64,000 nucleotides of DNA from NCBI GenBank assembly GCA_001567355.1, contig JYNZ01000006.1:18109-82108 (forward strand). Direction: 5' to 3'. A program made the translations under genes and the position numbers. The stretch is from a candidate division WS6 bacterium OLB20 (GTDB taxonomy: Bacteria > Patescibacteriota > Dojkabacteria > B142 > OLB20). The notes beneath the pieces were generated by a model. It worked only from the letters and a program-made list of their open reading frames with translations. It did no database searches and was not told the DNA's origin. Position 1 is the stretch's first letter; each line of letters opens with the position of its first letter. This document shows positions 1 to 18,342 of the stretch, piece by piece.

Positions 1-10
1 CGCACTCAGC

Positions 11-1030
11 ATGGCGAAGAAAGAAGAGTCCGGCGAACCCACGCAGGCCGGAAAAACCAAGGCGCTCAGTATGGCGGTAGCGCAGATTGAGAAACAGTTC
101 GGTAAGGGATCAATCATGAAGCTCGGCGACGGCGCAAAGCGCACCGATGTGGATTCGATTTCGACCGGCGCTCTGTCGCTTGATATCGCGCTTGGTATCG
201 GTGGTGTACCGAAAGGCAGGATTATCGAGATCTACGGCCCTGAATCATCCGGTAAAACCACCCTTGCGCTGCATATCGTGGCAGAGGCACAGGCAAAAGG
301 GGGAGTCGCTGCATTTATCGATGCAGAGCACGCCCTCGACCCCAAATATGCAGAGCAGATCGGGATCAATCTTGATGAGCTGCTCATCTCTCAACCTGAC
401 TACGGCGAGCAGGCGCTTGAGATTCTGGAGACACTGGTCCGGTCAGGTGCTGTTGATGTGATTGTCGTTGACTCGGTTGCAGCCTTGACTCCACGCGCCG
501 AGCTTGAGGGTGATATGGGAGACTCGCATATGGGTCTTCAGGCAAGGCTCATGAGTCAGGCACTCCGCAAGATTACTGCAATCAGTGCCAAGATGGGTAC
601 GACCATCATCTTTCTCAACCAGCTTCGTATGAAGATCGGCGTCATGTTTGGCAATCCCGAGACCACAACAGGCGGTAATGCGCTAAAGTTCTACGCATCT
701 GTGCGTATGGAGATCCGCCGCAAGGAAAAGATTGGTACTCTTGAGAATGTTGAAGGACACAAGGTCAGAGTAAAAGTTGTAAAAAACAAGATGGCCCCTC
801 CGTTTAAGGAGGCAATGTTTGACATCATCTACCCCAATGGAATTGACAAGGTCAGTTCACTGCTGGATGCAGCCACTCAGTTTAATGTGATCGAAAAAGC
901 AGGATCATGGTTCAAAATGGGTGACAACCAGCTGGGTCAGGGGGCTGAAGCAGTAAAAGAACTGCTCAAGAGTGATACGGATCTGCGCAAAAAGGTCTAT
1001 GCCGGAGTTAAAAAAGCTGCCGGTCTGTAA
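11..1030 (+). CDS. recA: Recombinase RecA
   Basis: Walker A '[13 protein letters not shown]', overall RecA architecture, 339 aa; typical RecA N-terminus '[19 protein letters not shown]'. Confidence 0.97.
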
Positions 1031-1053
1031 CGGTTATTTCTTACTGAGCGTTC

Positions 1054-1647
1054 ATGGCCAAACTTACGAAAAGTCTAAACTATCTCTTTATTTCCAAAGT
1101 AAGGATTAAGTGCATCAAATATTTCCTGTTTAATCCTGATGTCCCGATTCACCTGCGGGGTGCAGTCAGAGAACTGAAAGAAGAGATTAATGCGGTCCGT
1201 CGCGAGCTGACCAGGCTTGAGGAGATCAGCTATATAAAGGCTGAGGTTCGCGGTAACCGTAAGTACTTTTCACTCAACTACGAGTATGACTTTCTTAATG
1301 AGCTCCTGGGAATGTTCCACAAAACATTCGGACTGGGCGGAGCCTTGCGCAGCAATGAGGCAAAGCTTGGTGACATCCAGTTTGCTGTTCTGACAGATGC
1401 GTACATTAAAGGAAACAGACTTGGCGGTCAGGATGTGGATCTTGTTGTAGTCGGACAGGTTGACCTGAATGTACTTGGTGAGATCGTCGATGAGGCGGAG
1501 AAGAAGCTCGGACGTGAGATAAACTACACAGTCTTAAAAGGCAGCGAATTTGTGCTGCGCAAAAAGCGACGTGACGCATTTGTAACCGAGCTTCTGATCC
1601 GCGATAAGGTGGTAGTTATCGGAAACAGTTCAGACCTGGCAAACTGA
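1054..1647 (+). CDS. Winged-helix-like N-terminus plus Pol-beta-type nucleotidyltransferase-like C-terminus (motif degenerate: GG..x10..DIQ, second DVD)
   Basis: N-terminal 'KVRIKCIKYFLF...LRGAVRELKEEINAVRRELTRLEE...KAEVRGNRKYFSL' resembles wHTH; C-terminal 'GGALRSNEAKLGDIQFAVL...GQDVDLVVVG' resembles the minimal NTase hG[GS]..DxD. Stop overlaps the next start (TGATG at 1645-1649). Confidence 0.45.
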   Translation: MAKLTKSLNYLFISKVRIKCIKYFLFNPDVPIHLRGAVRELKEEINAVRRELTRLEEISYIKAEVRGNRKYFSLNYEYDFLNELLGMFHKTFGLGGALRSNEAKLGDIQFAVLTDAYIKGNRLGGQDVDLVVVGQVDLNVLGEIVDEAEKKLGREINYTVLKGSEFVLRKKRRDAFVTELLIRDKVVVIGNSSDLAN

Positions 1648-2477
1648 TGCGAGAGCAGCTGATCCCGCTTAAAAACAGACAGAGCAGTGAACGCTACAAG
1701 GTATGGCTTAAACAGGCGCATTACGATCTCAAGGCAGCCGAGTTCAGTCTGGAGCACGGTTTTAATGAGTGGGCCGCATACCAGTCAGAACAGGCTGTTG
1801 AAAAAGCACTCAAGGCTGTCATCATTCACGGTGGCTGGCGTGCACCCCGTATCCATAAACTCCAGGTGCTGATCGGACTTGCAAACGAAGTTAATGACGA
1901 ATTCAGAAACACAAGGCTGGAGTTCCGTCATCTGGAATCGTTCACCTTTATTTCCCGCTATCCGTTTCTGCTGCCCGATAAGGAGGGGACACCTCATGAG
2001 ATCATCCGCAAGGCTGATGCAGCAAAGGCTCTAGGTCAGGCACAGACACTTATTGACCAGATCAACATCATCCTCAAACATGATCCGCAGCCGACAACAG
2101 AGGTCGCGCACCCGGTTAGCGAGATGTATACACAGGCACGGGTAGAGGAACGTCTGGTTGAAGTGAAGGAAAACCTGGTCAGAGAGTTTGACCCTGAGCG
2201 GATCATCCTGTTCGGTCGTTTTGCCAGAACAATGGAGCCGAAACAACCATCCACGCTGGACATCCTGATTATTGCAGAGACTGAGGAGCCGTTTATTGAA
2301 CGGATCAAACGTGCACGAAAAGCGACAAAGGGTGGTGTGCCGGTAGTGGAGCCGCTAATCTACACTCCTGAAGAGTTTACTCTGATGACAGAACAAAAAG
2401 AGGAGACATTTCTGGAATCAGCAGTCGAAGAGGGGAAGGTGTTATACGAAAGATCAGCAGAACCTACTCAATCGTAA
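1647..2477 (+). CDS. HEPN-like domain fused to MNT-type nucleotidyltransferase-like domain
   Basis: N-terminal helical region carries R-x4-H ('RLEFRH') as in HEPN RNases. C-terminal 'ILFGRFARTMEPKQPSTLDILIIAE' resembles the MNT GS-x-ARG-x(5-6)-SDIDLL motif but keeps only one Asp. Confidence 0.5.
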   Translation: MREQLIPLKNRQSSERYKVWLKQAHYDLKAAEFSLEHGFNEWAAYQSEQAVEKALKAVIIHGGWRAPRIHKLQVLIGLANEVNDEFRNTRLEFRHLESFTFISRYPFLLPDKEGTPHEIIRKADAAKALGQAQTLIDQINIILKHDPQPTTEVAHPVSEMYTQARVEERLVEVKENLVREFDPERIILFGRFARTMEPKQPSTLDILIIAETEEPFIERIKRARKATKGGVPVVEPLIYTPEEFTLMTEQKEETFLESAVEEGKVLYERSAEPTQS

Positions 2478-3132
2478 CTGAAGCCAGCGTTTTGGCTATA
2501 GCCTGATCAAATGTCAGCTCGGGTTCTGCAGTTACATCTTCGTTCTTCATGAACAGAAATCCAACCTCATATTTCCCTGCAGGTAGAACATAGAGCTCTG
2601 ATGCCGGCATGCTTTCGTTCCCACGGTACATTGATGAGTCCTGCTGGGCTACTGTTATCTTGGCGCTCAGTTTCCAGCCTGTAACGTTGAGCTTTTCCTG
2701 CTGGCCGCTGCCGTTGATAACAGTCAGTGTGTAGTATTCACGAAGATCATCCTTGTAGACAAAAGTCTGGTGAGCTGCGGCGGGTGCTGTGGCAGTCGTT
2801 ACCGGGTCGCCGATCTCCATCAGTCCCGGCTGCAGATTAAAACTGACACCGGTAGCGTCATAACTGATTACACGCATTTCCTCGGCGAGGACTTCGGGAT
2901 TATTGCCCGAGCTTTCAATCGCTGCTGATGCCTCATCCCCCATTACAATCTGATTAAGCTGCTGCAGCTGATTGTTTACGCTTAAGAGTGTCCGCTGCTG
3001 CTCTGCGAGCTGCTGCTGCATGGAGATGATGGTATAAGACATGCCAATCAGCAACCCCAGAAGTATGACTGTCAGCGGGAAAACGACTCCCGGATAGGTC
3101 TTTCTCGGTGGCATTGCAATTGTGTCATGCAT
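2464..3132 (-). CDS. Hypothetical membrane-anchored protein (N-terminal TM helix, Gln-rich coiled segment)
   Basis: Long ORF with 'VFPLTVILLGLLIGMSYTII' TM helix; no recognisable catalytic motif. Confidence 0.4.
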   Translation of the reverse strand: MHDTIAMPPRKTYPGVVFPLTVILLGLLIGMSYTIISMQQQLAEQQRTLLSVNNQLQQLNQIVMGDEASAAIESSGNNPEVLAEEMRVISYDATGVSFNLQPGLMEIGDPVTTATAPAAAHQTFVYKDDLREYYTLTVINGSGQQEKLNVTGWKLSAKITVAQQDSSMYRGNESMPASELYVLPAGKYEVGFLFMKNEDVTAEPELTFDQAIAKTLASVTIE

Positions 3133-4156
3133 AATAGGCGGCAGAAACCAGTTCTGTCTGTGAAAGTTCTTCTAAAGTACGCGCTCCTGTAGAAAACATA
3201 GCAATTGTCAGCTCTTCGTGCAACTGCTTCAGCACTGATACGCAGGCATCGGTGCTTTCAAGTGACGGTGCCAGCAGTGGTTTAGCAGCTGTTGCGAGTT
3301 TTGCGCCCAGCGCTATGGCTTTTGCAATATGAATGCCGTTGCGGATACCTCCCCCGGCAATAAGGTTGAGACCGCTAATTCCGGCAGCGCCAATCAGCGC
3401 CTCTGCTGTCGGAATACCCTCTCCGCGAAACAGATGACCAATGGTGTCCTCGCGGCGGTAGGCTTCTACGCCGGCCCAGGATGTTCCTCCGGTGCCGGAT
3501 ACATCAATCCAGGTAATGCCTGCGTCAGCGAGTGCTTTGGCGGTGTCTTTATCGATGCCGGTCCCGACCTCTTTTATGACAACAGGTTTCTCGATTTTCG
3601 GGAGTACTTTTTCGAGCTTGGGTAGCAGATCCTTGAAGTTTGTATCACCCTCTGGCTGGATCGCTTCCTGCAGCGGATTGACATGCAGAAAGATACCATC
3701 CGCATTTACAGAATCGATGATTCTGTTGATCTCATCAGCGCCGTAACCGTAATTGAGCTGCACGAGCCCCATGTTTGCGAGCAGAGGAACGTCAGGACAG
3801 TATTTCTTTACATCAAAACTTTTGATCGATTCCGGTTTGCGCAGAATTACGCGCATTGAACCCAGACCCAGTGCAACGCCTGCCTCCTGTGCTGCCTCTG
3901 CCAGATGAGTGTTTATTCCGAGCCCCTTTTCAGGACCGCCGGTCATAGATGATATTACAAACGGAAACTTAAGCTTCTTTCCAAGAAACTCGGTACCCGT
4001 ATCAATCTCTGCCATGTCGATCTCAGGCAGTGCTTTAAAAGGCAACCGGAAATAGTCAAACGATGAGCGGTACGGCTCAACTTCTTCTTCAAGCACAATC
4101 CGGATGTGATCCAGTTTGCGTTCGTTGATTGTTTTGTCGTTGTCTGTACCGCTCAT
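3125..4156 (-). CDS. fni: Isopentenyl-diphosphate delta-isomerase, type 2 (FMN-dependent)
   Basis: 'FPFVISSMTGG', 'VVIKEVGTGI', TIM-barrel FMN-enzyme pattern typical of IDI-2; 343 aa. Confidence 0.85.
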   Translation of the reverse strand: MSGTDNDKTINERKLDHIRIVLEEEVEPYRSSFDYFRLPFKALPEIDMAEIDTGTEFLGKKLKFPFVISSMTGGPEKGLGINTHLAEAAQEAGVALGLGSMRVILRKPESIKSFDVKKYCPDVPLLANMGLVQLNYGYGADEINRIIDSVNADGIFLHVNPLQEAIQPEGDTNFKDLLPKLEKVLPKIEKPVVIKEVGTGIDKDTAKALADAGITWIDVSGTGGTSWAGVEAYRREDTIGHLFRGEGIPTAEALIGAAGISGLNLIAGGGIRNGIHIAKAIALGAKLATAAKPLLAPSLESTDACVSVLKQLHEELTIAMFSTGARTLEELSQTELVSAAYYA

Positions 4157-4170
4157 ACGTTAAGTGTATC

Positions 4171-5715
4171 TTATTTGGCTTCTTCGGTAACACGGAATTC
4201 ACGGATACCGGTGACTTTTACTGAGCCGGGATAGGATTGAGTCTCTTCGATCTCCTTGGCAATCTTCTGGCTGAGAACAGTAACATCGTCGTCCGAAGCC
4301 GAGTCTGGTCTGAAGATCACACGTACCTCGCGTCCTGCATGTACCGCATATGCCTCTTTAACTGCGTCATACTGTTTGGCGATATCCTCAAGAGCTTTAA
4401 CACGCTTGATGTAATCCTCATAGTTATCCCGTCTGGCTCCGGGTCGAGCCCCCGAGATCGCGTCTGCAATCTGAACCAGAACCGCCTCAAGAGTCTTGGG
4501 TTCAATATCACCGTGATGTGACTCTACGGCATTGGCAAGAGTTTCATTCTTCAGGTACTTGCGGACAATATCACCCGAAATGTGGTGATGCGGTTTACCT
4601 TCAATCTCGTGGGTAAGAACTTTACCGATATCATGCAGCAGACATGCCTTCTTGGTCAGTTCAACATTTGCTCCTACCTCTGAAGCAAGCTGTGCGCCAA
4701 GATTGACCATCTCCATGCTGTGTTTGACCAGGTTCTGACCGTAACTGTACCGGTATTTAAACCGTCCAAGCAGTTTGATAACCTCCTGCGGAAGATCGTT
4801 AAACCCTGCGTCGTAAGCCATCTTCTCGCCGGTGCGTTTGATCTCACGGGCGAGTTCGGTTTTGATGTTCTTGATTGTTTCTTCGATGCTTCCGGGGTGA
4901 ACGCGGCCATCCTTCAAAAGCTTCTGAAGAGCAAGAGCTGCTACCTCGCGTCTGATCGGGTCAAAGCAGGACAGCGTCACCTGATTGGGAGCTTCGTCAA
5001 CAATAATGTCTACTCCGGTAAGGCGCTCAAATGTCCGGATATTACGTCCCTCCTTGCCGATAATTTTACCCTTCAGTTCCTCGCTTTCGATGTCGATTGT
5101 GGTAGCGGTGCTTTCTGAGACATAGTCAGTTGCACTCTTCTGCATGACATCAATCAGGATCTCGCGTGCGCGGTCCTCCGACTGGCTCTGAATCTTAAAC
5201 TCGGCTTCACGGATGCTTTTTGCGACCCATTCCTTGAGTTCCTCCTCGGTCTGTGAGATAAGCTCCTTTTTCGCCTCTTCAACGGTCATACGGGCGACCG
5301 CCTCGAGTTCGGTGGCAATTTTGTCACGCATTGATTTGACATCACGTTTCGCCTGCTCCAGGGCGCGTTCTTTTTTCTCAAGCGAATTGAACCGTTCGTC
5401 GATGTCTTTTGAACGGGTCAGCAGTTGTTTTTCGCGTTCATCGAGTCGCTTTTCTTCTTTTTCGATCTCGATACGCAGTTCACGTGATTTGGCAATCGAG
5501 TTCTGTTTGATCTGGTTTGCCTCTTTTTCGGCTTCCAGGATCAGTACCTTTGCCTTTTCACTTGCTTTCTTGATTGCTTCCTCCTCGGAGAGATTTAGAG
5601 CGCCAGTCTTCCTGAGTTTTTCTTCCAGCTCAGTCTTCTGCCTGTTAAACAGGTACGTGCCTCCGGCTCCGAGAGTAGCAATGATGGAAAGCATAATCAG
5701 TATCACATTTTCCAT
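4171..5715 (-). CDS. rny: Ribonuclease Y
   Basis: N-terminal TM, long coiled coil, KH domain 'IIGKEGRNIRTFERLTGVDIIVD', HD domain 'LLHDIGK...H'; 514 aa. Confidence 0.9.
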   Translation of the reverse strand: MENVILIMLSIIATLGAGGTYLFNRQKTELEEKLRKTGALNLSEEEAIKKASEKAKVLILEAEKEANQIKQNSIAKSRELRIEIEKEEKRLDEREKQLLTRSKDIDERFNSLEKKERALEQAKRDVKSMRDKIATELEAVARMTVEEAKKELISQTEEELKEWVAKSIREAEFKIQSQSEDRAREILIDVMQKSATDYVSESTATTIDIESEELKGKIIGKEGRNIRTFERLTGVDIIVDEAPNQVTLSCFDPIRREVAALALQKLLKDGRVHPGSIEETIKNIKTELAREIKRTGEKMAYDAGFNDLPQEVIKLLGRFKYRYSYGQNLVKHSMEMVNLGAQLASEVGANVELTKKACLLHDIGKVLTHEIEGKPHHHISGDIVRKYLKNETLANAVESHHGDIEPKTLEAVLVQIADAISGARPGARRDNYEDYIKRVKALEDIAKQYDAVKEAYAVHAGREVRVIFRPDSASDDDVTVLSQKIAKEIEETQSYPGSVKVTGIREFRVTEEAK

Positions 5716-5992
5716 GATAGATACCCACTAAGTAAAATAGCGATCAACAATCAGCAGATAGAAGAAGAGGGAAGGTGAACGAAGACTCCGCCAGTAACCG
5801 GCGGGTGGTGCTACGTTCTGCTTTGTGGTAACGCCAGGTAGGCGGTGTCACCATTCATAAAGCGAGTATTTCGTCAAAGTAAAAGTAAGAGAAATGCAGT
5901 ATGTGTTCCTTCCTTCTTATCCCTGTGCAACATGGGTTTATGATAAACTGAACGCGATTCAGAGTCAAGTGGATCGGGCGAATTAACGTAAC

Positions 5993-7294
5993 ATGAAAAA
6001 ACCTCAAAAAACTTATCTGACAAGGATTCCGGCTGGATCTGCGGCAGCAGTTCATCTCGCGGTCGTGGTGGCCTGCATAGGCCTGTTTCTGCTTGTCGTA
6101 CGGCTGTTTCCGGTGCCGCCTGCTGTTGATCCACTGGAACACTGGCGCATAGCAGGGGATCTGTCACTCTATTCCAAGGGCGGGGTTATGATTACCGTGT
6201 ACTCTGTTCTGCAGGGATTAGAACCGCATATCGCTGCCGCTCTGGTTAATACCGCATCGTTTGCGGTAATAGGGATTCTCTTGCTGCTGCCTGCTGATGT
6301 CCGGAAAAAAACTCTACAAACCCAGTATCTGTTTACAGCGGTAACACTACTGCTCGGCTTATGGTTGAGCGGCTTTGCGCCTCTTGTCGCGACTGAGCTG
6401 CCGCATCTTGCTTTCGGACTGCTGGCCATCAGGATCATGATACACATTCTCCTCAATGGACCATCATGGCTTGCCGTAGTTGGTGCAGCAGCAGCCGGGG
6501 CAGCCTCGGTAAGCATTCGGCTGCAGACTATGCTGCCTGTACTGTTTATATTGACTGCAGTATCAGGGTATGTGGTACTGAAACGGATACGACTTACGCG
6601 GAGCGTGGTTGCCTGCATTGCAGTGCTGATTCTCTCGGTCACCGGAGGCCGGCTGATTGATGCTGTGTACAGGATGGGTTCACAGGTACCGGAGCGACTG
6701 GCCGCGCATGAGATGCAGGTTGCCCTGAATGGCGTTACACCGGGTCAGTGCGGTCTTAATACAAGGGCTGGAACAGCATATCTGGCCGAACCGCTTGAGA
6801 CAGGAAAAGGTGTTCCTCAAGCGTATGTCGAACTGTTCTCACAGCAGACTCCCAAGGATCTGGCTGCAAATTATGCATGCAAGCTTGACTACTGGCTGAG
6901 CCTGCGGGGGAGCAGCTGGATCATGGTTTCCAGACATCTGAACCCATTGTACTCAGAGGATTTTGAAGAGGTGCGCAATACAAACAGTTCCCCGATGATA
7001 CGGGCCGCACTTCATCTTGAGGCCGTCACAGGTACGATCTTATATCTCATCATGATTGTGCTTGCTGTTCTGCTGTTTAAAGAAAAACGCAGTTCGCTCG
7101 GCAGGCTGCTGCTGCTGGGTTCTCTGTTGCTGTTTTCCGGGTACACCATGCAGCATATGATTATCGAGATTAACACGCGCTATATCGTTCCGCCGATGGT
7201 GTTTTCGCTGTATTTACTGCTGTACGGTTATGCGTTGCGGGACAGATCAGTCAAAAAGATCGCTGAAGGCTCTGAAAAGTCTGTCAACAAATGA
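5993..7294 (+). CDS. Polytopic integral membrane protein, function unknown (possible GT-C-like glycosyltransferase)
   Basis: About 9 hydrophobic helices with a central ~130-aa soluble loop; no signature motif recognised. Confidence 0.4.
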   Translation: MKKPQKTYLTRIPAGSAAAVHLAVVVACIGLFLLVVRLFPVPPAVDPLEHWRIAGDLSLYSKGGVMITVYSVLQGLEPHIAAALVNTASFAVIGILLLLPADVRKKTLQTQYLFTAVTLLLGLWLSGFAPLVATELPHLAFGLLAIRIMIHILLNGPSWLAVVGAAAAGAASVSIRLQTMLPVLFILTAVSGYVVLKRIRLTRSVVACIAVLILSVTGGRLIDAVYRMGSQVPERLAAHEMQVALNGVTPGQCGLNTRAGTAYLAEPLETGKGVPQAYVELFSQQTPKDLAANYACKLDYWLSLRGSSWIMVSRHLNPLYSEDFEEVRNTNSSPMIRAALHLEAVTGTILYLIMIVLAVLLFKEKRSSLGRLLLLGSLLLFSGYTMQHMIIEINTRYIVPPMVFSLYLLLYGYALRDRSVKKIAEGSEKSVNK

Positions 7295-8509
7295 TCCTGT
7301 GTACTTCTGACTCCTGCCTCCCTCTGAAGCGCCGGACTGGGGTTTTGCAGCATTGATCCGTTCATATTGCGATATGCGTTGCTGCAGCTCTGCCAGACCG
7401 CGGTTTTTCTCCTGGATGGAATGCTGCAGATTGTTCAGGATCTGCTGATTGTCGTTGACCTGATTGCGAAGACGTATGAGCTCTGTCTGCTGGTCGTTGT
7501 AGTTCTTTTTAGCAGTTATCACTTCCTGTCTGGCTTTTACCAGGTCTGCATGCTCCTGTGAATCGACCATTTTTTTAAGCAGCTGGTCTTCGGTAATCCC
7601 GATGTTGAGAAAATAGTTTAGATCGTTCTGATTCGGCTCACGCCCCAGTATCTTAACGTAGGTCTTCGTTATCATCTCCTTTCGCTCTTCACGGCTGGGC
7701 ATCGGCGTAAACCCGCCACCGCCGGACTGCGGTGCTGCGGGACCGCCAAAACTGTTGCCGCCAAAACCGCCGGCTGCAGGACTGTTAAAACCTCCTGTAT
7801 TAAATCCTCCGCCTGCTGGAGGAAACACGGGGGCGCCTGCGTTGCCCGGATCAGGTCTTGCTGCCGGCTGGGGTGCTGGAGCAGGATCCCGCACGGGCGC
7901 AGTCACTGACTGTGGAACTGATGTGGCGGCCGGCCGCTGTGAACCTGCCTCACGGAATTCCATTCCGTAATACTGCAGAATGCCTTTAGCGATTCCTTTG
8001 CCGATTTTTTCAATATTCTCCTGCTGCTTCAGAAATGCGGCATCTTTTTCGTTATCAATGAAGCCGCATTCGATAAGCGCTGCAATTGGAAGAGTCTCAT
8101 GAAGAAAAGCGAGTGAGCCAAGCTCATGGTCATATTCGCTTTTTGAGCCCAGATTCTTTAGACCGGTCTCATCCGAGGTGGATCTCAGGACAGCATTAAC
8201 CAGCTTGCTTGAGCTGTTGTTTCCGTCTCCCTCAAACCAGCCCTCAAGGCCTGTGCCGCCGCCATCGTTAATGTGGACTTCGATGGTGATGTCGTTATTC
8301 TGTTCGCTATAGCCGCTCTTGTTGATCCAGAGGATGCGGTTCTGCATGTCCTGGTCTGGCGGGACGGATAAGGAGATGATGCCGTTCTGGCGAAGATAGG
8401 GGAGCGTTGCTTTGACAATGTCACGCGCCACATCGACCTCGCGGAGGCCGTTTGCTTCTGTGCCGGGGCTCCGCTCTGTATGTCCGGAAGATAAAATGAC
8501 TCGTGGCAT
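7247..8509 (-). CDS. N-acetylmuramoyl-L-alanine amidase (Amidase_3 family) with Gly/Pro/Phe-rich low-complexity linker and C-terminal coiled coil
   Basis: 'VILSSGHTERSPG...E.DV', 'IEVHIND', 'IECGFIDNEKD' match Amidase_3 zinc-site blocks. Linker 'GGGFNTGGFNSPAAGGFGGNSFGG'. Heptad-like Q/N/L-rich tail. Confidence 0.7.
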   Translation of the reverse strand: MPRVILSSGHTERSPGTEANGLREVDVARDIVKATLPYLRQNGIISLSVPPDQDMQNRILWINKSGYSEQNNDITIEVHINDGGGTGLEGWFEGDGNNSSSKLVNAVLRSTSDETGLKNLGSKSEYDHELGSLAFLHETLPIAALIECGFIDNEKDAAFLKQQENIEKIGKGIAKGILQYYGMEFREAGSQRPAATSVPQSVTAPVRDPAPAPQPAARPDPGNAGAPVFPPAGGGFNTGGFNSPAAGGFGGNSFGGPAAPQSGGGGFTPMPSREERKEMITKTYVKILGREPNQNDLNYFLNIGITEDQLLKKMVDSQEHADLVKARQEVITAKKNYNDQQTELIRLRNQVNDNQQILNNLQHSIQEKNRGLAELQQRISQYERINAAKPQSGASEGGRSQKYTGSFVDRLFRAFSDLFD

Positions 8510-8542
8510 GAATCTGCGTTGCTTTTGCTAATTATAGCACTG

Positions 8543-9391
8543 TCAGTCCGTCAGCAATGAGTAGATCCTATTGAGCTCTTCATCAGTCTTAAACGGGATC
8601 ACAATCTTGCCTCCGCGCCGTGACCGCTGCAGGCTCAGTTTTTTTCCGAACTTTGTCTGCAGAGTGGATTCCAGCTTCTGTGTGTACTCATCAATGAGAC
8701 GCTCATTTTTTCTGGGCGGTTTGTCTTTTTTGCCCTGGTTAAGTCTGCGGACAAGCTCTTCCACAGCTCGGACGCTGAGTTTGTCTCTGACCGTGATCCG
8801 GGCTGCCTCAACCATTGCCTCCTGTGACGTCAGTCCCAGGATAGCTCGGGCATGTCCCTCGCTCAGCTCTTCATTTAGAAGCATCTTTTTGACGTCAGTA
8901 GGGAGTGTAAGCAGTCTGATTTTATTCGCGATGGCAGGTCTGCTGTATCCGACCTTTTTGGCAATATCAAGATGTGACAGCTTGAACATTGAAACAAGCT
9001 GCTCAAATGCCATAGCTTCTTCAAGCGGGTTAAGGTCGCTGCGCTGTATGTTTTCGACAATCGCAAGCTCCAGCATCTGCTGCGGGGACGCTTCCTTGAC
9101 CACAACGGGAACGGTGGCCATCTTGGCAAGTTTTGCTGCCCGCCAGCGACGTTCTCCGGCGATCAGCTCGTACGTAGTTTCGTTTTTGCGCGTAACAATG
9201 AGCGGTTCGATAATTCCATGCTCACGGATCGAATCAGCAAGTTCAACGAGCGTCTCGGGCTTGATCTCTGCACGAGGCTGGTACGGGTTGGGAACAATAC
9301 GCTCGATTGGCAGGTTTGCGATGTATGCCTGCTTCATCTGCGACATTGTGTCCTCGGTAATCAGTGATGAAAGTCCTTTTCCTAATGCCAT
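8543..9391 (-). CDS. parB: Chromosome partitioning protein ParB/Spo0J
   Basis: 'ALGKGLSSLI' N-terminus and ParB box 'LIAGERRWRAAKLA...VPVVV'. ORF extends to 9442, but ATG at 9391 gives the canonical ParB N-terminus. Confidence 0.88.
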   Translation of the reverse strand: MALGKGLSSLITEDTMSQMKQAYIANLPIERIVPNPYQPRAEIKPETLVELADSIREHGIIEPLIVTRKNETTYELIAGERRWRAAKLAKMATVPVVVKEASPQQMLELAIVENIQRSDLNPLEEAMAFEQLVSMFKLSHLDIAKKVGYSRPAIANKIRLLTLPTDVKKMLLNEELSEGHARAILGLTSQEAMVEAARITVRDKLSVRAVEELVRRLNQGKKDKPPRKNERLIDEYTQKLESTLQTKFGKKLSLQRSRRGGKIVIPFKTDEELNRIYSLLTD

Positions 9392-9672
9392 GGTGGTGAT
9401 AGTTACTGTTCCTACTATAAAGGAGAATGCACGTTCGCTCAAGTTGATATCGCAACCGACTTCCCAGACCGTCTCTAATCTACAGGTTTACCCTACAGGT
9501 CTGCACTTTGCATTGCGGGACAATAGAACCTGGCCCGCGGGCAGACGCGCATACGGTAGAATATCTTCGATAAAAAAAAAAGATCCGGACGTGAATATAT
9601 CTGAGTATCCGTGCTCTGTAAGAAATCAGACCTGCAGATTACACCTGCGGAAGAAAGCTGATCTCGGGCTGC

Positions 9673-10254
9673 TCAGGCTGCAATCTCCTGGGCAATTACC
9701 GCAAAGTGTTTTTCCGGGTCGAGACGCCATTCAAGGACTTTGAATGTTCCCTCAAGCGCATGGCGCAATGCCGGCTCATTAAAGCGGAACGTATGCTCGG
9801 GAGCAGCTTCGTCAGAGATCTTCGATGGGACAACAAGAAACAACAGACCACCGGTTTTGAGCATGCGGTTTATCTCCTTGAGAGTATCAATAAACTCTCC
9901 GCTTGTCTGATAATGCAGGGAGTCAACTGCGATTGCCGCATCAAAAGATGCATCTCCAAATGCTTTAACCTCTTCGTGAATATCGGCAACACTTGCACGT
10001 CCGGGGAGGTTCTTCTCCATCAGCCACTTCTGAGCCAGATCGACTGCTGACGGGGAGAAATCAATACCCTGAACGTCAAAGCCCTCTTCCGCCAGCGGGA
10101 CAAGATGCCTGCCAGACCCGCAGCCCAGGTCAATCACGGTTTTTACATCGTGAGCTTTGAATACGTTTACGACAGAGGTAAGCATGGGATGCGGATCAAG
10201 ATGAAACCGCCCATGGTTGATGTAGTGTTGTTCCCAGGCAGTATATCTGTCCAT
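9673..10254 (-). CDS. Class I SAM-dependent methyltransferase
   Basis: Motif I 'VIDLGCGSGRHL', motif post-I 'VQGIDFS', 'LKTGGLLFLVV'. Confidence 0.7.
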   Translation of the reverse strand: MDRYTAWEQHYINHGRFHLDPHPMLTSVVNVFKAHDVKTVIDLGCGSGRHLVPLAEEGFDVQGIDFSPSAVDLAQKWLMEKNLPGRASVADIHEEVKAFGDASFDAAIAVDSLHYQTSGEFIDTLKEINRMLKTGGLLFLVVPSKISDEAAPEHTFRFNEPALRHALEGTFKVLEWRLDPEKHFAVIAQEIAA

Positions 10255-10472
10255 CAGAGCGAAGAAACAACAGCAATGATGATCATCGCAAGTATCGCAA
10301 CACCGAAGATAAAAATAAATCCGATCACCACATAATTGAAAAAAGGTGTCGGGTTAAGCTCTTTGTCCTCTTTTTTCTCTTCTGTTGCTGGTGGCGCGGG
10401 TACACCGGGGTCCGGCTGCAGATTTCCGTCTGCCGGCAAAGGCGGAAGGTTTTGTAAGGGATCGGTTGCCAT
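10254..10472 (-). CDS. Small Pro-rich membrane-anchored protein
   Basis: 72 aa, C-terminal TM 'FFNYVVIGFIFIFGVAILAMIIIAVV'. Its stop overlaps the methyltransferase start (TGATG). Confidence 0.35.
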   Translation of the reverse strand: MATDPLQNLPPLPADGNLQPDPGVPAPPATEEKKEDKELNPTPFFNYVVIGFIFIFGVAILAMIIIAVVSSL

Positions 10473-10548
10473 TGCTGTATATGTCTAACTGTGATCATTC
10501 TACACAATCGGGAGTTTTATTCATACCTGCAACGTATTATCATGAACT

Positions 10549-11562
10549 ATGCAGGGTTTACCGCTGATCATAATCTGTCTGCTTGGAATGCTCTCTCTGG
10601 GAGCATTGATCGTTCTTCGCTTCTGGTATCAGCGTGTACCGGTGCCAGAGCAGATCCGGGATCCTAAGCTGCTGCACATCCTGATCAGAGATACGGGAGA
10701 ATATTCGCTCGAACATACGCGTGAACTCTTTGACAGGCTTCACGATCTCATAAAGTGGCACAACAGTATCGTCAGTCTTGAGCTGATAGCGGGTGCCTAC
10801 GGGATGCATGTGATTGCAGTAACAGAGGAAAGGATTGCTGTCGAACTGCATGACCTGTTTGCTCAGTTTTATCCCGATGCGGCAATCGACAATGTCGGGG
10901 ACTACACGAGCAGTGTGCATACGACCCATAAACTCATGAGTACGGCAGAATTCGGACTGAAGCGTGAATTTGCCTATCCGGTCAGGCGTTTTGATGAATT
11001 CAGTCACGATCCCCTGGGAGCAGTTTTTGCCGTGCTGCAGAATGTAACGCTTCCTAATGAGTTCTGGCTGCAGCTTGTCCTGCGTCCTGCGCCAGATACC
11101 TGGAAACCGGCAGCCCGCAAGATGATCGGGAATACCGAGCTGGCGCATGAGCGCATGAACAGAGTGGAGCAGAAACTGCAGCAGAAAGGATTTCAGTTTA
11201 TCGTCCGCGGGCTGGTGAAATCCGACAACTTTAATGTGGCAGGCAGTTATTTTCAGGACCTGGCGGACGCATTTGGGATGTTTGATTCCCCTGACCTCAA
11301 CAGCATCGCGCAGAAGAAGCAGGGCAGGCCTGACATATCTGACCTGCTGCGTCACCTGCTGGTCGGCAGGACACTGTATGAACGGACTGACGAGGTTACC
11401 CGCTATGAACACCGCGTGCTGGATCACCTGAGTGAGGATGTGATCACACCTTCAGAGCTTGCAGGGCTCTGGCATGTGCCCGATATTGATAATCCTGTAG
11501 AACTTACACCTGGAGGGACCGAGCTTATGATCGCGCCGGGCCATGACCTGCAGGAATTATAG
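10549..11562 (+). CDS. Hypothetical N-terminally membrane-anchored protein
   Basis: 337 aa, TM 'LPLIIICLLGMLSLGALIVL'. Ends abruptly against convergent parA. Confidence 0.4.
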   Translation: MQGLPLIIICLLGMLSLGALIVLRFWYQRVPVPEQIRDPKLLHILIRDTGEYSLEHTRELFDRLHDLIKWHNSIVSLELIAGAYGMHVIAVTEERIAVELHDLFAQFYPDAAIDNVGDYTSSVHTTHKLMSTAEFGLKREFAYPVRRFDEFSHDPLGAVFAVLQNVTLPNEFWLQLVLRPAPDTWKPAARKMIGNTELAHERMNRVEQKLQQKGFQFIVRGLVKSDNFNVAGSYFQDLADAFGMFDSPDLNSIAQKKQGRPDISDLLRHLLVGRTLYERTDEVTRYEHRVLDHLSEDVITPSELAGLWHVPDIDNPVELTPGGTELMIAPGHDLQEL

Positions 11563-11587
11563 CCAGCTGTAGCAGTGACTGAAAAAA

Positions 11588-12366
11588 TCAGTCGTATCTG
11601 GAGAGAACTTCATCAGCAAGATCGCTGTATGCCTGGGCGCCTTGCGAGTTTGGGTCATACGCTTTGATGGATTTGCCGTGAGAAGGCGCTTCTGACAGAC
11701 GTACGTTGCGCGGAATAATGGTGTTGAACACTTTGTCCCCGAAGAACTTTCGCACTTCTTCGGTGACCTGTTTTGACAGGTTTGTGCGTGAGTCAAACAT
11801 CGTCAGTATCACACCTCCGATCTCAAGCCTTGAGTTGAGCCGGTTTTTAACCAGTTTGATTGTATTCATAAGCTGCCCGAGTCCCTCAAGAGCAAAGTAC
11901 TCTGCCTGCACAGGAATAAAGACCTGGTCACTTGCTGTCAGAGCATTGATGGTCAGAATACCGAGCGAGGAGGACAGTCAATCAGCACAAAATCAAAGCT
12001 TTCGCGAACGGCATCGAGCGCATTGCTTAGTATTGATTCGCGGGACATGGCAGATACAAGTTCGACCTCTGCTCCGGCAAGTTCTATCCCGGCTGGTGCA
12101 AGAAACAGATTTGGTGACGATGTAGCCAGAAATATCTCGTTGACAGTCATTGAACCGGTCAGAACGTCGTAGAGTGTATTGTCGATCTTCTTCTCCTGAC
12201 CCTCTTCTATAGTCATACCAAAACCGATGCCGGAGGTAAGATTTGACTGCGGGTCAAGATCGACAAGCAGCACCTTTTTACCTTTTTCAGCCAGAAACAC
12301 GCCAAGGTTGATCGCTGTTGTCGTTTTGCCCACGCCTCCTTTTTGGTTTGCTACTGCTATGATCAT
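11588..12366 (-). pseudogene. parA: ParA/Soj partition ATPase interrupted by 1-nt frameshift (ORFs 11953..12366 and 11588..11911)
   Basis: N-terminal part 'IAVANQKGGVGKTTTAINLG' (deviant Walker A) ends '...[10 protein letters not shown]'. An alternative frame continues '[32 protein letters not shown]...' into the second ORF. One base appears to be missing near 11966-11970. Confidence 0.8.
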
Positions 12367-13022
12367 TCTCTGGATGATAGTTCCTCGTATTCGCCCTGTC
12401 TTATGATACCAAATTTAGCTACGGGCCAGTATCTGAAGAATACACGGCCCTTAAGCATACTGCGGGGAACAAAACCTACTTCTGCAAATCTTGAATCTTT
12501 TGAGTTTTCGCGGTTATCTCCCATCAGAAAGTAATGACCTTCGGGTACTACAAGTTCTTCGCCTTCTTCCATAAAGGCCTGTCCCTGAAAGGGAACGCGT
12601 GTCCTTGTTGTCTTGGGGATGTATTTCTCGTCAAGTTCGCTGCCGTTTACAAATACGCCGTTATCTTCGATCCTGATTGTATCTCCGCCAACCGCAATGA
12701 TTCTTTTTATCAGGTCTGTCCCTTTGTTGTTGAAAATCACAACATCACCTCTGCGGTAGTTGTAGTCGACTCCCAGAGTGTTGGCCACCTGGCTGCCGCC
12801 AAACCACTCGATCACTTTGTTGGTAAGCAACAGCTCCTGATCCTGAAAGTTCGGTTCCATTGACTGACCGTCAACCTGATTCGGAATTGCAATCAGCATA
12901 TAAATGAACACGCTGATCAGCAGGGCAATGATGACTGTCTGGACTATGTCAACAAAGAATGCCCGGATCTTGTCTTCGGGCTTGTAGAATGATGGATTTA
13001 CGGTTGGTTGTGGTCCCAGCAT
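12363..13022 (-). CDS. lepB: Signal peptidase I
   Basis: Catalytic 'GQSMEPN' (Ser), 'IKRIIAVGGD' (Lys), 'GDNRENSKDSR' box; N-terminal TM. Confidence 0.9.
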   Translation of the reverse strand: MLGPQPTVNPSFYKPEDKIRAFFVDIVQTVIIALLISVFIYMLIAIPNQVDGQSMEPNFQDQELLLTNKVIEWFGGSQVANTLGVDYNYRRGDVVIFNNKGTDLIKRIIAVGGDTIRIEDNGVFVNGSELDEKYIPKTTRTRVPFQGQAFMEEGEELVVPEGHYFLMGDNRENSKDSRFAEVGFVPRSMLKGRVFFRYWPVAKFGIIRQGEYEELSSRE

Positions 13023-13058
13023 GATGCTTGCTAAGTATACCCGCTAATCAGGTGCCGA

Positions 13059-13718
13059 TCAATCAGGCGACACATTTGTCTTGCCGCGTCCTATAAGTCC
13101 AAAGCGGTCAGGTGGCCAGTAGCGGATAAACACACGACCAGACAGCTGTTCGCGTTTCAAAAAGCCGATATCAGCAAATCTCGAGTCCTTGCTGTTGGGA
13201 CGGTTATCGCCTAACACAAAATATGTGCCCTCTGGTACAACCGTATCCACCCCTTCAGGGAATGTTGCCTGCGAGAAGGGCATGGCGGTAGGCTTTTGCG
13301 AGGGATCAATATATTCCTCGTCGAGCAGGATGCCGTTCAGGTAGACACGACCCCCCTCGATCCTGACAGTATCGCCGCCGATTGCAACAATACGTTTGAT
13401 CAGTGATATCTCTCCAAAAGGAAACACAACCACATCGCCACGACCGTAGTCATAACCCTGGGCCTGACCGAAACCGGTTGTTCCGACCATGTTGATGATT
13501 TTGTCGGTAAACAGCTGCTCCTTGTCCAGAAAGTTGGGTTCCATTGACTGCCCGTCTACCTGGTTTGGCAACAGTATCACAAGATAAAGCAGTACAAAAA
13601 CCACCAGAACTACAGCGATTACCTGAAGGACACTGATTATTCTGCTGCCAGCTCCTGATTTTGCGGATTCCGTATAAAAGTATTCATTTGTTTTAACTTC
13701 TGTAGCCATGTTCTTCAT
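13059..13718 (-). CDS. lepB: Signal peptidase I (second, tandem paralog)
   Basis: 'GQSMEPN', 'IKRIVAIGGD', 'GDNRPNSKDSR'; same architecture as the neighbour, about 45% identical by eye. Confidence 0.9.
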   Translation of the reverse strand: MKNMATEVKTNEYFYTESAKSGAGSRIISVLQVIAVVLVVFVLLYLVILLPNQVDGQSMEPNFLDKEQLFTDKIINMVGTTGFGQAQGYDYGRGDVVVFPFGEISLIKRIVAIGGDTVRIEGGRVYLNGILLDEEYIDPSQKPTAMPFSQATFPEGVDTVVPEGTYFVLGDNRPNSKDSRFADIGFLKREQLSGRVFIRYWPPDRFGLIGRGKTNVSPD

Positions 13719-13883
13719 TGACCTTATTCAATCATGAACCATTATTACTGTATTATCAAGCGCACTCAGTCAGAAGCCAAAACGCGCCCGATACCAGTTT
13801 TGCAGCTGTGCTTCTCCTCCTGCTGCCAGCATGGCTCCGGGACCCGGATCTCTATTAAGATCAACGACCTGCTGCAGCCGGGC

Positions 13884-13904
13884 AAAAAAGACCCGGTCCG
13901 GGTC
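13884..13904 (-). terminator. Putative rho-independent terminator downstream of ileS (stem GACCCGG/CCGGGTC followed by T6 on the minus strand)
   Basis: Plus-strand 'aaaaaagacccggtccgggtc' reads on the minus strand as a perfect 7-bp inverted repeat followed by TTTTTT, about 110 nt after the ileS stop. Confidence 0.45.
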
Positions 13905-14015
13905 GTTCATCACGAATGATTGTAGTAAGTTTTGATCATGTTGATTTTGTGCTGCAGCCAATCTAACAGCTGTCCGGGATGGCTGTCAATCACATTGCGG
14001 TCGCGGATAGCAGGC

Positions 14016-17000: not shown

Positions 17001-18134
17001 ATCAATCTCGGCAGTCAGGTCGTTTTCGAGCGGGAGATAATAGCGTGTCTTTACAACTTTTTTCGTTGATTTTTTTATCAGCTCGACATATTCATCTTTG
17101 GTCAGTTCATCAGTCTTTTCGATCAGACTGCCTGTGGCCGATTTGTCTCCGGCGTAATACTTGCGGGTAAATGTATAACTGTCGTCAAGCTTGCGGATGC
17201 GAACGTCTTTAAGCTCAAGTCCTGACTCGTCACGGTAGTCCTCAAGATAGGCCTGGGTGATTTGCGACTTTTTAAGTTTTTTTGCATCCTCAGGCAGCTG
17301 TGATAGCAGCCAGGCGCGTTCGATTTCACTGTCGGAACGTGTCACACGATAGAGCGTATAGTCTTCCTGTGGATCTATTACCAGAGCCTTGTTTGCCGGC
17401 AGAGTCCAGGGGGTTGTTGTCCACGCAAGGATGCTTTTACCGTTAAACCGTCCCTCGGAGATGACCGGGAATCTGACGGTGATAGCCGGATCCTCAACAT
17501 CCATGTAGGAGTTATCCATGGCTATCTCGAAGTTGGAGATCGGCGTGCCGAGCACTGTGTCGTAAAGTGAAGTTCTGATGCCTTCGTAGATCAGGTTTTT
17601 GTCGTACAGCTGCTTGAAATTCCACATGACCGACTCCATATAGTCCTGATCCATCGTCTTGTAGCTGTTGTTGAAGTCGACCCAGCGACCGATCTTGTCA
17701 ATGTACCACTGCCATTCTGCTGACGTGTTTCGGGTGTACGTGTAGCACTGCTCGATAAACTTATCGATTCCAAATTCTTCAACCTCACGGCGGTTTTTTA
17801 TTCCAAGTTCTTTCTCGACTTTGGTTTCGATTGGCATGCCATGACAATCCCAGCCCCAGACACGTTCAACTCGCTTGCCGCGCATTGTCTGATACCGCGG
17901 AACGACATCCTTGGCAATGCTTCCGAGCAGATGTCCGTAATGTGGGAGACCGGTGATAAACGGAGGACCGTCATAAAAGACATAACTGTTTGCGGGGTCA
18001 CGCTGCTGAACCGATTTTTCAAAGATGTTGTGTTCCTTCCAGAATGCGGTAATGGAGTCTTCAAGTTCAGGAAAATTCTGTTTCGGATTTACTGGTTCAA
18101 ACATTTCGGTACAGCGATGTAAAAAACTGAACAA
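14016..18134 (-). CDS. ileS: Isoleucine--tRNA ligase with two large inserted domains (CYTH-like; histidine-phosphatase-like)
   Basis: HIGH 'PHYGHLL', editing-domain 'WTTTPWTLPAN', 'GRKMSKSYGNYPDP' KMSKS. 1372 aa, about 350 aa longer than typical IleS. Confidence 0.92.
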   Translation of the reverse strand: MFSFLHRCTEMFEPVNPKQNFPELEDSITAFWKEHNIFEKSVQQRDPANSYVFYDGPPFITGLPHYGHLLGSIAKDVVPRYQTMRGKRVERVWGWDCHGMPIETKVEKELGIKNRREVEEFGIDKFIEQCYTYTRNTSAEWQWYIDKIGRWVDFNNSYKTMDQDYMESVMWNFKQLYDKNLIYEGIRTSLYDTVLGTPISNFEIAMDNSYMDVEDPAITVRFPVISEGRFNGKSILAWTTTPWTLPANKALVIDPQEDYTLYRVTRSDSEIERAWLLSQLPEDAKKLKKSQITQAYLEDYRDESGLELKDVRIRKLDDSYTFTRKYYAGDKSATGSLIEKTDELTKDEYVELIKKSTKKVVKTRYYLPLENDLTAEIDVYQNNLQGLIVAEVEFPSPRMANEFAAPAWFGKEVTDSPGVHPPQIADMTIEQVNAINEKHVQKTHDYTEAARVDEVILAEKRAETVLAGMDAEAVETFKGTKLLGLSYEPPFDFIASGPNDHKVYAYEGMVHMKEGVGIVHSAPGFGDIDTEMGLANNLDIAADVISDEGKYTEAVPRWQGIYIKEADDLILADLKERSLLFKSERITHRYPFSPRSGVPLIHKAQHSWFISIKDIRDDLLRFNEQINWVPDHLKYGRFAKGIETAPDWGISRTRFWGTPLPVWQLEEKGTVVERKVIGSRDELREHSTQKITKVVFVRHASRDKSAADGKLNDEGWAQVESFNTTMKDEAFDLIVASDTRRAQQTVEELAQMQGKEVLTEDVFGTIPMREEYERIEADLLEKHPEAKWISDIAEEDLRAAYKQIIKQTEDGLSEFLKAHEGKYILVATHGERIAIIRHIVEGRNLKETLAMDVPYTGTVTMFFVGDRMLDLHRPMIDDITLKGEKGELKRVAEVLDVWMDSASMPYAQKHYPFENKEQFEASYPADYIVEYIGQTRAWFYVMHVLSTALMQKPSFKNVVTTGIIFGTDGRKMSKSYGNYPDPRGVLEQYGAESLRLYLMGSPIMVGDDMLINEQGLVEQMKSFILPLWNSYSFFVTYANMHNWVPADNLAVDDENSDEEITDTVPFKTIESKLDQWIIARLQLAVRDVRIRMDEYNLPAAVRELPEFLSDLSKWYIRRSRDRFADGDQQALDTLYFVLTEFTKLIAPFTPFLAEAMYGNLVTGKVLDASESVHLTDYPEVDVELLEQSDKLMMQMQHVRDVVALGQALRVKHGVKVRQPLSELEVKSDSEPSRDYEFEAWMKELVQDELNVKTVDEEKEITAAPGWETAAHEQSNIQIAMDFNLTEELKREGTMREFVRLVQNLRKKSGFDMGETLQMDVATEDRDMLIVLDLLKADIEAGTGAVVSVSKDSTDGWKTIEVNGAHVSVNLRR

Positions 18135-18139
18135 TTATA

Positions 18140-18331: not shown

Positions 18332-18342
18332 AGCTGATTATA

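Follow-up and report, generated by a model that had tools for sequence, protein, structure and literature searches.

Eroded relatives of a HEPN/nucleotidyltransferase toxin-antitoxin module beside recA in a Dojkabacteria genome

Is a pair of overlapping genes directly downstream of recA an active toxin-antitoxin (TA) or defence system, or the remnant of one? The question is raised by a 64,000-nt stretch of DNA (hereafter the window; contig JYNZ01000006.1, positions 18,109 to 82,108) from candidate division WS6 bacterium OLB20, a member of the Dojkabacteria, within the Patescibacteria, with a tiny genome; protein entries from this bacterium are identical to both proteins studied here. In an earlier note on this DNA, two open reading frames, ORF1 and ORF2, were described as a translationally coupled pair: ORF1 joined a winged helix-turn-helix (wHTH) region to an atypical nucleotidyltransferase (NTase) core, and ORF2 fused an HEPN domain to an MNT nucleotidyltransferase-like domain, the whole being proposed as a variant TA or defence module. 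Our results revealed that ORF1 and ORF2 are eroded, vertically inherited relatives of an RNase-toxin/nucleotidyltransferase-antitoxin module and that they do not form a new defence system. Their architecture, though uncharacterised, is already catalogued and does not amount to a system of a new kind. The domain-level statements on both proteins are near certain, and the functional statements that follow from them are graded one by one.

Domains and candidate active sites

Profile and structure searches found both folds that had been proposed for ORF2, and the order HEPN then MNT is real because Pfam, profile and AlphaFold/Foldseek matches agree. Pfam HEPN (PF05168) matched residues 17-137 (82.7 bits, where the cut-off is 22; E=2.8e-23). 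Sequence matches to TM0613, TT1696 and ST0689, HEPN proteins of solved structure, were also obtained, and a profile of 43 ORF2 homologues matched PDB entries 1wol, 1o3u and 1ufb at E ~1e-10. In the AlphaFold model (input of 43 homologues; pLDDT 88.3, pTM 0.83), the N-terminal helices spanned residues 11-36, 40-61, 72-82, 94-104 and 122-143, among which 11-36, 40-61, 94-104 and 122-143 are predicted to form the four-helix up-down HEPN bundle with an insert at 62-90. With Foldseek, the N-terminal half matched 1ufb, 1wol, the sacsin HEPN domain (3o10), 1o3u and AF0298 (2hsb) with a probability of 1.0 and TM-scores to the target of 0.68-0.84.

The catalytic motif of this HEPN domain is not the one first assigned to it. 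The earlier note had read 'RLEFRH' as an Rx4H motif and had itself named conservation of that motif as decisive. Among 120 homologues that are 43-100% identical to ORF2, position 90 was Lys in 100 and Arg in 8, position 95 was His in 65, Lys in 17 and Phe in 14, and the hexapeptide aligned to non-conserved positions of the solved TM0613, TT1696 and ST0689; the assignment therefore failed. Conserved in its place were R104, Y105 and P106, all invariant, where R104-YPFL-L109 is the counterpart of the 'RYPDAH' motif of TT1696. The position of the canonical HEPN His (+5 from R104) was occupied by Leu in 66, Ile in 40 and Tyr in 9 of the homologues, so that at the end of helix 3, where the canonical Rx4-6H would stand, the Arg is kept and the His is lost. 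H70 was invariant as well, in the context P67-[KR]-x-H70-K-L; it aligns with the His of 'RGHS' in ST0689 and lies, in the AlphaFold model, in a loop (62-71) between helices 40-61 and 72-82. P116-H117 is a further invariant pair. The invariant R104 and H70 place ORF2 with HEPN domains that have a putative alternative site (AF0298-like or AbiV-like). In AF0298-like HEPN-T proteins and AbiV the motif His is absent, the RYP Arg is kept and an alternative conserved His stands in the insert that separates helices 2 and 3, a pattern from which Anantharaman et al. proposed an alternative RNase site (PMC3710099). AbiV was rejected as direct support for such a site, since the AbiV preprint places activity on an Rx5H in a flexible loop; by analogy, it supports only the broader notion that a HEPN-T-like protein of atypical make-up can be an RNase.

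For the C-terminal half of ORF2, the Pfam Polbeta NTase match was weak (residues 173-271, E=3.5e-4, 21.1 bits against a cut-off of 26.9), and many homologues carry precomputed PF18765/PF01909 matches. Foldseek matched this half to 2rff, HI0073 (1no5), the Legionella MNT 8xeo, and MntA (7bxo/6m6w), with a probability of 0.99-1.0 for 2rff, 1no5, 8xeo and 7bxo, and the family profile matched the NTase chain 9xbd_E at E=5e-5, indicating a Pol-beta-like NTase fold for residues 163-268. G190, T203, D205 and E235 were invariant in the 120 homologues, and R194, R219 and R224 were invariant or nearly so. T203 aligns with the first Asp of the DxD ('SDIDFLIV' in 9xbd_E), and E235 is the third carboxylate. 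Position 191 was Ser in 57 and Arg in 56 family members, and is Arg in ORF2. In place of the full signature (hG[GS]x9-13DxD plus a third carboxylate), ORF2 thus carries G190-R191 and T203-x-D205. The earlier reading of 'STLDIL' as a DxD reduced to a single Asp was correct, and the reduction is a trait of the family, since T203 and D205 are invariant. In HepT/MntA, both Asp residues of the DxD are needed for AMPylation; 6m6u, also among the Foldseek matches of ORF2, is an MntA D39E/D41E double mutant. The TxD substitution would thus argue against AMPylation of the HEPN domain by the ORF2 MNT domain.

ORF1, with 794 homologues found, gave an AlphaFold model with a pLDDT of 90.7. Foldseek placed its N-terminal ~90 residues in the ArsR/SmtB fold (HlyU (4k2e), SmtB, CzrA and NolR, TM-scores to the target of 0.65-0.76, and SqrR too), and DNA binding is predicted from this model. 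S14, K15, V16, R17, K19, H33, L34, R35, R39, E43-A47, R49-E51, R54 and N68 are invariant, and no Pfam family, HTH families included, matched ORF1 above its cut-off. The PADLOC model PDC-M05A (PDLC04368) matched residues 6-196 of the 197 at E=4.3e-31, so that ORF1 is of the type of PDC-M05 subunit A, a wHTH-nucleotidyltransferase. Furthermore, residues 106-188 were aligned by hhalign with the ORF2 MNT domain (E=2e-4, D129 placed on D205), and weak NTP_transf_2/Polbeta matches were found in 8-9 of 35 ORF1 homologues. When the domain is aligned with the Legionella PDC-M05A sequence 'FVFGSVAKG..SDIDVLIIG', D127-V-D129 falls on the DxD, 'TDA' stands in place of xGS, and E155 is present. The first acidic residue was kept in 42 of 47 Microgenomates proteins but in only 8 of 36 Dojkabacteria proteins. 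AMPylation by ORF1 is unlikely because the GS is lost here and the first Asp is lost in most Dojkabacteria ORF1 proteins. The description of ORF1 as a wHTH with an atypical NTase core held, with 'DVD' at the DxD position, whereas 'DIQ', which the earlier note had also listed, lies ahead of the first MNT strand and is no motif. Conservation of the GS..DxD residues, on which the note had asked for a check, was accordingly complete at T203 and D205 of ORF2, divided at its position 191 and largely lost at the first acidic residue of Dojkabacteria ORF1.

Table 1. Coordinates of the features of the recA-ORF1-ORF2 locus within the window.
Feature	Position	Strand	Remarks
recA	11..1030	+	339-aa ORF; first gene of the apparent recA-ORF1-ORF2 operon; orthologues in related loci have RecA Pfam domains
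ORF1 (PDC-M05A-like), ArsR-like winged helix and MNT-like domain with an eroded NTase site	1054..1647	+	197 aa
ORF1 winged helix-turn-helix, ~residues 12-75	1087..1278	+	Foldseek; invariant recognition helix EEINAVRRE
ORF1 MNT-like domain, ~residues 106-189	1369..1620	+	'LTDAY' replaces hGS; DVD at 1432-1440; E155 conserved
TGATG stop/start overlap of ORF1 and ORF2	1645..1649	+	Sequence read directly
ORF2, HEPN-T (PF05168) then MNT fusion	1647..2477	+	276 aa
ORF2 HEPN domain, residues 11-143	1677..2075	+	Pfam E=2.8e-23; H70 (1854-1856), R104-Y105-P106 (1956-1964) and P116-H117 invariant
'RLEFRH', residues 90-95, earlier proposed as Rx4H	1914..1931	+	Not the catalytic motif
Variable linker of ORF2, residues 144-162	2076..2132	+	Gapped, poorly conserved columns; pLDDT 74-85; gene split point in other lineages
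ORF2 MNT domain, residues 163-268	2133..2450	+	G190-R191 (2214-2219), T203-L-D205 (2253-2261), E235 (2349-2351)
222-aa ORF, function unassigned	2464..3132	-	Convergent; shares 14 nt with the 3' end of ORF2; closes the operon

Distribution, inheritance and locus

ORF1 is a lineage-wide Patescibacteria gene that is independent of ORF2. An alignment scan of species-representative Patescibacteria genomes gave at least 574 places matching ORF1, of which 80 loci were examined; at most of them ORF1 had neither ORF2 nor any other HEPN gene as a neighbour. Among the 33 Dojkabacteria loci, recA preceded ORF1 in about 31, and ORF2 followed ORF1 in about 13 of 31 evaluable species loci; the others had a glycosyltransferase, an M23 peptidase or a small gene of unassigned function at this place. 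The 47 Microgenomates-type loci (L040-L086, e.g. L048:3292-10558), which include Curtiss-, Woese-, Gottesman- and Daviesbacteria, had the order DUF4446, DUF3048, ORF1, SecD, SecF, CCA-adding enzyme (on the opposite strand) and RecJ-like DHH protein, and neither recA nor ORF2 was found near ORF1 in any of these 47.

ORF2 is restricted to the Dojkabacteria. When metagenomes were scanned with its alignment, 55 loci were obtained. Clade A (at least 49% identity) always showed the order recA-ORF1-ORF2(-fni)-rny, and ORF1 and ORF2 adjoined in all 53 of its loci. Clade B (~45% identity) had no ORF1 or recA upstream; its ORF2 followed rpoD in L004-L006 and lay near ftsA, ftsZ and rny. Since ORF1 mostly occurs without ORF2 and clade B ORF2 occurs without ORF1, the two are not an obligate module, and the coupling that had been claimed for them holds within clade A only. 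Many of the contigs met in these scans are labelled 'uncultured Candidatus Saccharibacteria', 'uncultured Gammaproteobacteria' or 'Pseudomonadales' (L008, L010, L013, L044, L045, L049-L051 and others), yet are clearly Dojkabacteria- or Microgenomates-like by a recA 70-77% identical to that of the window or by the conserved secDF array; locus L026 carries the label Ignavibacteriaceae. Such labels seem to be placeholders or the result of faulty binning, and they are unfit for inferring the host range of the family.

Pairwise identities over 30 loci followed those of recA, with Spearman coefficients of 0.51 for the HEPN part, 0.55 for the MNT part and 0.49 for ORF1; the p-values are inflated by non-independence, and the effect sizes alone were used. 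No match to ORF1 or ORF2 was found in 50,697 phage records. Plasmid matches were distant, ORF1 matching PDC-M05A proteins and ORF2 matching separate, canonical MNT-then-HEPN pairs in Thermus. Apparent HEPN-then-MNT dyads on Thermus and Thermomicrobium plasmids arose because pieces of the matches had been joined regardless of their order; these were rejected, the annotation of Thermus brockianus giving the canonical NTase then HEPN. The core genes around the pair (recA, fni and RNase Y), a divergence that tracks recA and the lack of phage matches together favour domestication over a mobile defence island. The same evidence argues for long vertical retention of ORF1 and ORF2.

Separate genes encode HEPN (142-152 aa) and MNT (117-143 aa) in about 19 loci, which come from both clades of ORF2. 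The HEPN gene comes first, and the two overlap by ~40-60 nt in different frames, the HEPN stop and the MNT start overlapping at the region that is the linker (residues 144-162) in ORF2. The split MNT genes have a conserved 'MYK..' start and always an [ST]xD (TLD, TID or SID). The alternation of fused and split forms in both clades (L014, L019, L029, L065 and L124-L144, e.g. L129:3998-4722, L134:2144-2727 and L142:3926-4758) points to repeated fusion or fission events, and HEPN and MNT therefore work as a unit in the joined and the divided form alike.

At the locus itself, the extent of the ORF1-ORF2 pair and the TGATG overlap beside recA were as the earlier note had given them. Base 1647 belongs both to the ORF1 stop TGA (1645-1647) and to the ORF2 start ATG (1647-1649), the gap between recA and ORF1 is 23 nt, and no promoter- or terminator-like sites were found between recA, ORF1 and ORF2. 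The spacer between ORF1 and ORF2 varied across the 53 related loci (median 17 nt, range -4 to 248, with a single outlier of 809), so that their operon linkage is conserved and the TGATG overlap is not. Neighbouring genes in the window are all housekeeping: a flavin mononucleotide-dependent isopentenyl diphosphate isomerase-like gene (fni), RNase Y (rny) and an amidase. The convergent 222-aa ORF has a hydrophobic segment at its N-terminus; it had no Pfam match and no tblastn match in any related locus among the queries against the ORF1 and ORF2 loci. No paralogue of ORF1 or ORF2 was found elsewhere within the window, and neither tRNA or tmRNA genes (ARAGORN) nor Rfam families at gathering threshold were found in 1..64000.

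The window begins 10 nt before the recA ATG, and the recA promoter thus lies outside it. Upstream of recA in related Dojkabacteria we observed a conserved promoter, TTAAATTGACAG, 17 nt and TGnTAxxxT (TTGACA-17-TGnTAxxxT), with an imperfect inverted repeat directly 3' of it that starts TTGAGTAA (for example GAGTAAAACTTTTATACTC; promoter and repeat at L001:6147, L007:3829, L014:3740, L034:3878 and L037:3825). The TTGAGTAA repeat looks like an operator or a 5' untranslated region element of the recA-ORF1(-ORF2) operon. As an operator shared by ORF1 genes it was ruled out: the motif is missing at Microgenomates ORF1 operons and is therefore not assignable to ORF1.

Weighing the explanations

What, then, might the two proteins do? 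The reading that we favour, and which we hold to be evenly balanced between right and wrong, is that of a domesticated TA remnant co-transcribed with recA, a composite of a cis-restrained HEPN protein and the regulator ORF1. On this reading, ORF1 would descend from the NTase/antitoxin subunit of an NTase + HEPN module of the PDC-M05A type and would now be a domesticated DNA-binding regulator existing independently of ORF2; it may act as an autoregulator of the recA operon, and contact between it and HEPN is also conceivable. ORF2's HEPN domain would be an RNA-cleaving or RNA-binding effector using R104 with H70 and possibly H117. The MNT domain probably still binds nucleotide, to judge from the conserved G190, R194, D205 and E235, and is unlikely to AMPylate; it may restrain the HEPN domain in cis by steric or dimerisation control, possibly with ATP binding, and not by oligoAMPylation. 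The module would have been captured as a chromosomal stress-response device that is co-expressed with RecA, and not as a mobile TA or defence system. An MNT domain incapable of AMPylation that restrains HEPN by another route is plausible by analogy, and would fit both the invariant TxD and the precedent of FhepTA (see below). However, gating of the ORF2 HEPN domain in cis by its own MNT domain is a tentative proposal that leans towards the improbable.

Several points weigh against this favoured reading. The absence of ORF2 next to ORF1 was judged within ~5 kb of ORF1, and at every clade A locus the two genes are tightly linked, as they would likewise be in a true two-gene system. The case for vertical inheritance is built on synteny of the loci and on correlated identities, and not on a reconciled phylogeny. 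With its canonical His lost, the HEPN domain of ORF2 could be inactive, and catalysis might still be possible with TxD, E235 and the conserved G190 and R194.

The linkage in clade A leads directly to the idea of an active two-gene TA or abortive-infection system, in which the ORF2 HEPN domain would be the RNase toxin, ORF1 the antitoxin and autoregulator, and the ORF2 MNT domain a second control layer. ORF1 matches PDC-M05A (E=4e-31), one half of a pair (NTase + HEPN) whose architecture is TA-like (PMC12988326); true PDC-M05 pairs, carried by plasmids of Legionella and Comamonas, share its gene order of wHTH-MNT then HEPN, and ORF1 followed by HEPN is also the canonical MNT-5'/HEPN-3' order (PMC3710099). 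Each of the 53 clade A loci has the two genes side by side (median spacer, 17 nt), and R104 and H70 are invariant. However, most ORF1 loci have no adjacent HEPN gene, clade B ORF2 stands without ORF1, and the ORF2 HEPN domain has no PDC-M05B match at E<=0.1. AMPylation by ORF1 is unlikely with its GS motif lost and the first Asp lost in most Dojkabacteria proteins, and the pair sits among core genes, outside any defence island, with a divergence that tracks recA, no phage matches and plasmid matches to distant modules alone. We regard an active two-gene system as unlikely. The TA or defence module of the earlier note is thus retained as ancestry, ORF1 being homologous to PDC-M05A, while the core-gene surroundings, the recA-tracking divergence and the lack of phage matches speak against it as present function.

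The erosion of the catalytic sites can be read in two further ways. [quoted passage not shown] G190, D205, E235, R194, R219 and R224 are invariant or nearly so, as expected of a selected nucleotide-binding pocket; the pTM of 0.83 for the two-domain protein suggests a fixed inter-domain arrangement; KNTase (1kny), ANT(4'') and AAD(9) are among the weak Foldseek matches; and it has been proposed that a fused HEPN may become the substrate-binding domain of an NTase (PMC3710099). On the other side, the first Asp of the DxD is Thr or Ser in every family member, as against DxD in 54 of 56 MNT-then-HEPN fusions; both Asp, the residues altered in the mutant 6m6u, are required for AMPylation in HepT/MntA; about half of the family, ORF2 included, has Arg where the GS motif has Ser, and the HEPN domain keeps polar RNase-site candidates (R104, H70 and H117) that a passive binding domain would not need. 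This makes a working NTase quite improbable to us. Conversely, both proteins may be non-catalytic, with ORF1 a transcription factor that dimerises through its MNT fold, ORF2 an RNA- or nucleotide-binding scaffold, and their adjacency a matter of a shared operon only. Canonical catalytic residues are indeed missing in all three enzyme-like domains, MNT-fused HEPN domains have typically been judged inactive (PMC3710099), and ORF1 is independent of ORF2; yet R104, H70, H117, T203, D205 and E235 are invariant across sequences that are 43-77% identical, indicating a specific chemical or ligand-binding role and not a scaffold, and two clades have each kept the fused form alongside the split one. We give it little credence.

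Returning to the domesticated remnant, its most elaborate version would make ORF2 a candidate phyla radiation-specific, vertically inherited HEPN RNase, gated in cis by an ATP-binding, transfer-dead MNT domain and co-expressed with RecA together with a domesticated PDC-M05A-type regulator, as a captured DNA-damage or energy-state RNA-control device, and ORF1 a transcription factor of the Patescibacteria core that arose from an antitoxin; in this full form it is doubtful. If the mechanism is true, a domesticated HEPN/MNT conflict module has long been kept in reduced Patescibacteria genomes, and an antitoxin-type enzyme domain has turned into a pseudo-enzyme, which would extend the AMPylation-independent control of fused MNT-HEPN proteins. 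Although a PADLOC model of a candidate-defence subunit matches them, ORF1-type proteins are near-universal and housekeeping-linked in Dojkabacteria and Microgenomates. As these are core genes in housekeeping surroundings, PDC-M05A subunit matches there are no evidence of defence. The value of the analysis thus lies in the corrected HEPN motif assignment and in the recognition that ORF1-type 'PDC-M05A' proteins are core Patescibacteria genes and not defence markers.

Comparison with known systems

The HEPN domain of ORF2 is a clear member of the AF0298-like HEPN-T proteins of PF05168 (ST0689 1wol, TT1696 1ufb, TM0613 1o3u, AF0298 2hsb and sacsin 3o10). It keeps the RYP Arg, lacks the motif His, has an alternative His in the insert that separates helices 2 and 3, and shares with them the association with MNT. 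It differs in being fused upstream of its own MNT domain and not encoded downstream of an MNT gene that stands apart, in the extra invariant P116-H117 and in its vertical inheritance in a Patescibacteria lineage. In HepT/MntA, both folds of ORF2 are found (MNT matches 7bxo, 6m6w, 8xeo and 5yep), HEPN is likewise paired with MNT, and the proposed logic of MNT restraining HEPN is the same. However, HepT is of the DUF86 type with Rx4HxY, whereas ORF2 is of the PF05168 type without that motif, and HepT-type chains were weak structural matches of it (7ae9_G, E=0.04). AMPylation by MntA needs GSx10DxD, where ORF2 has G[S/R]..TxD. The domain order is also reversed: instead of an MNT gene 5' of HEPN with a patchy or mobile distribution, ORF2 and its split forms have HEPN then MNT and are chromosomal, vertical and set among core genes.

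FhepTA (SO_1440, from the Shewanella prophage CP4So) is likewise a single polypeptide of MNT and HEPN, of 276 aa like ORF2 (PMC13000451). It was characterised in 2026, and its MNT domain blocks HEPN by oligoAMPylation and, without the GS..DxD region, by preventing HEPN dimerisation (PMC13000451). In contrast to ORF2, with its reversed order, degenerate motifs and chromosomal core-gene context, FhepTA has the MNT-N/HEPN-C order, an intact DxD and R-phi-xxxH + Tyr, oligoAMPylates and occurs on mobile elements (PMC13000451).

PDC-M05 consists of an NTase and an HEPN protein with a TA-like architecture, and its antiviral role is unconfirmed (PMC12988326). ORF1 shares 27-30% identity with the plasmid-borne A subunits of Legionella and Comamonas and is also followed by an HEPN-containing gene. 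These plasmid A subunits have an intact 'FGS...DIDVL' where the motif of ORF1 is eroded, and in true PDC-M05 pairs on these plasmids subunit A is followed by a PDC-M05B protein of 127-145 aa. PDC-M05B gave no match to ORF2 or its HEPN part at E<=0.1, compared with 1e-62 to 1e-70 for the plasmid B subunits; ORF2 carries an extra MNT domain, and ORF1 is mostly without an HEPN neighbour. The pair was therefore rejected as a PDC-M05 system, in that ORF1 fits subunit A and ORF2 does not fit subunit B. On Legionella conjugative plasmids, as seen on the Legionella pneumophila plasmid NZ_CP021287.1, an aminoglycoside adenylyltransferase-family gene, another NTase + HEPN-like protein, directly follows the PDC-M05 A+B pair (L089:5924-6745), and a RelE/ParE-Phd TA pair lies near; such a mobile context is missing around ORF1 and ORF2. 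KNTase and HI0073/HI0074 also join an NTase and an HEPN-like helical domain in one functional unit, and 1kny and 1no5 were weak structural matches of ORF2; they differ by an intact DxD and by a domain order that is reversed relative to ORF2, and there is no resistance-gene context at ORF2.

The HEPN-MNT fusion itself is not new, and both domain orders are already in databases and in the literature. HEPN-T-MNT fusions were listed in 2013 and suggested to be domesticated TA systems (PMC3710099). In a profile search of 1.84 billion representatives, we obtained 8,749 matches, only 14 of them at E<=1e-30. The best 150 of the 8,749 comprised 56 MNT-then-HEPN fusions (DxD kept in 54), 10 HEPN-then-MNT fusions, 58 MNT-only proteins (15 with [ST]xD) and 26 HEPN-only proteins. 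Five of the 10 HEPN-then-MNT fusions had the TxD of the ORF2 family, and three unrelated ones had an intact DxD (P0270, P0373 and P0298). With such fusions among the best 150, the premise that HEPN and MNT normally occur as separate partners is only broadly true. Particular to the ORF2 family is that a reversed domain order occurs together with an invariant TxD and with inheritance that is vertical and recA-linked, within a class of the Patescibacteria.

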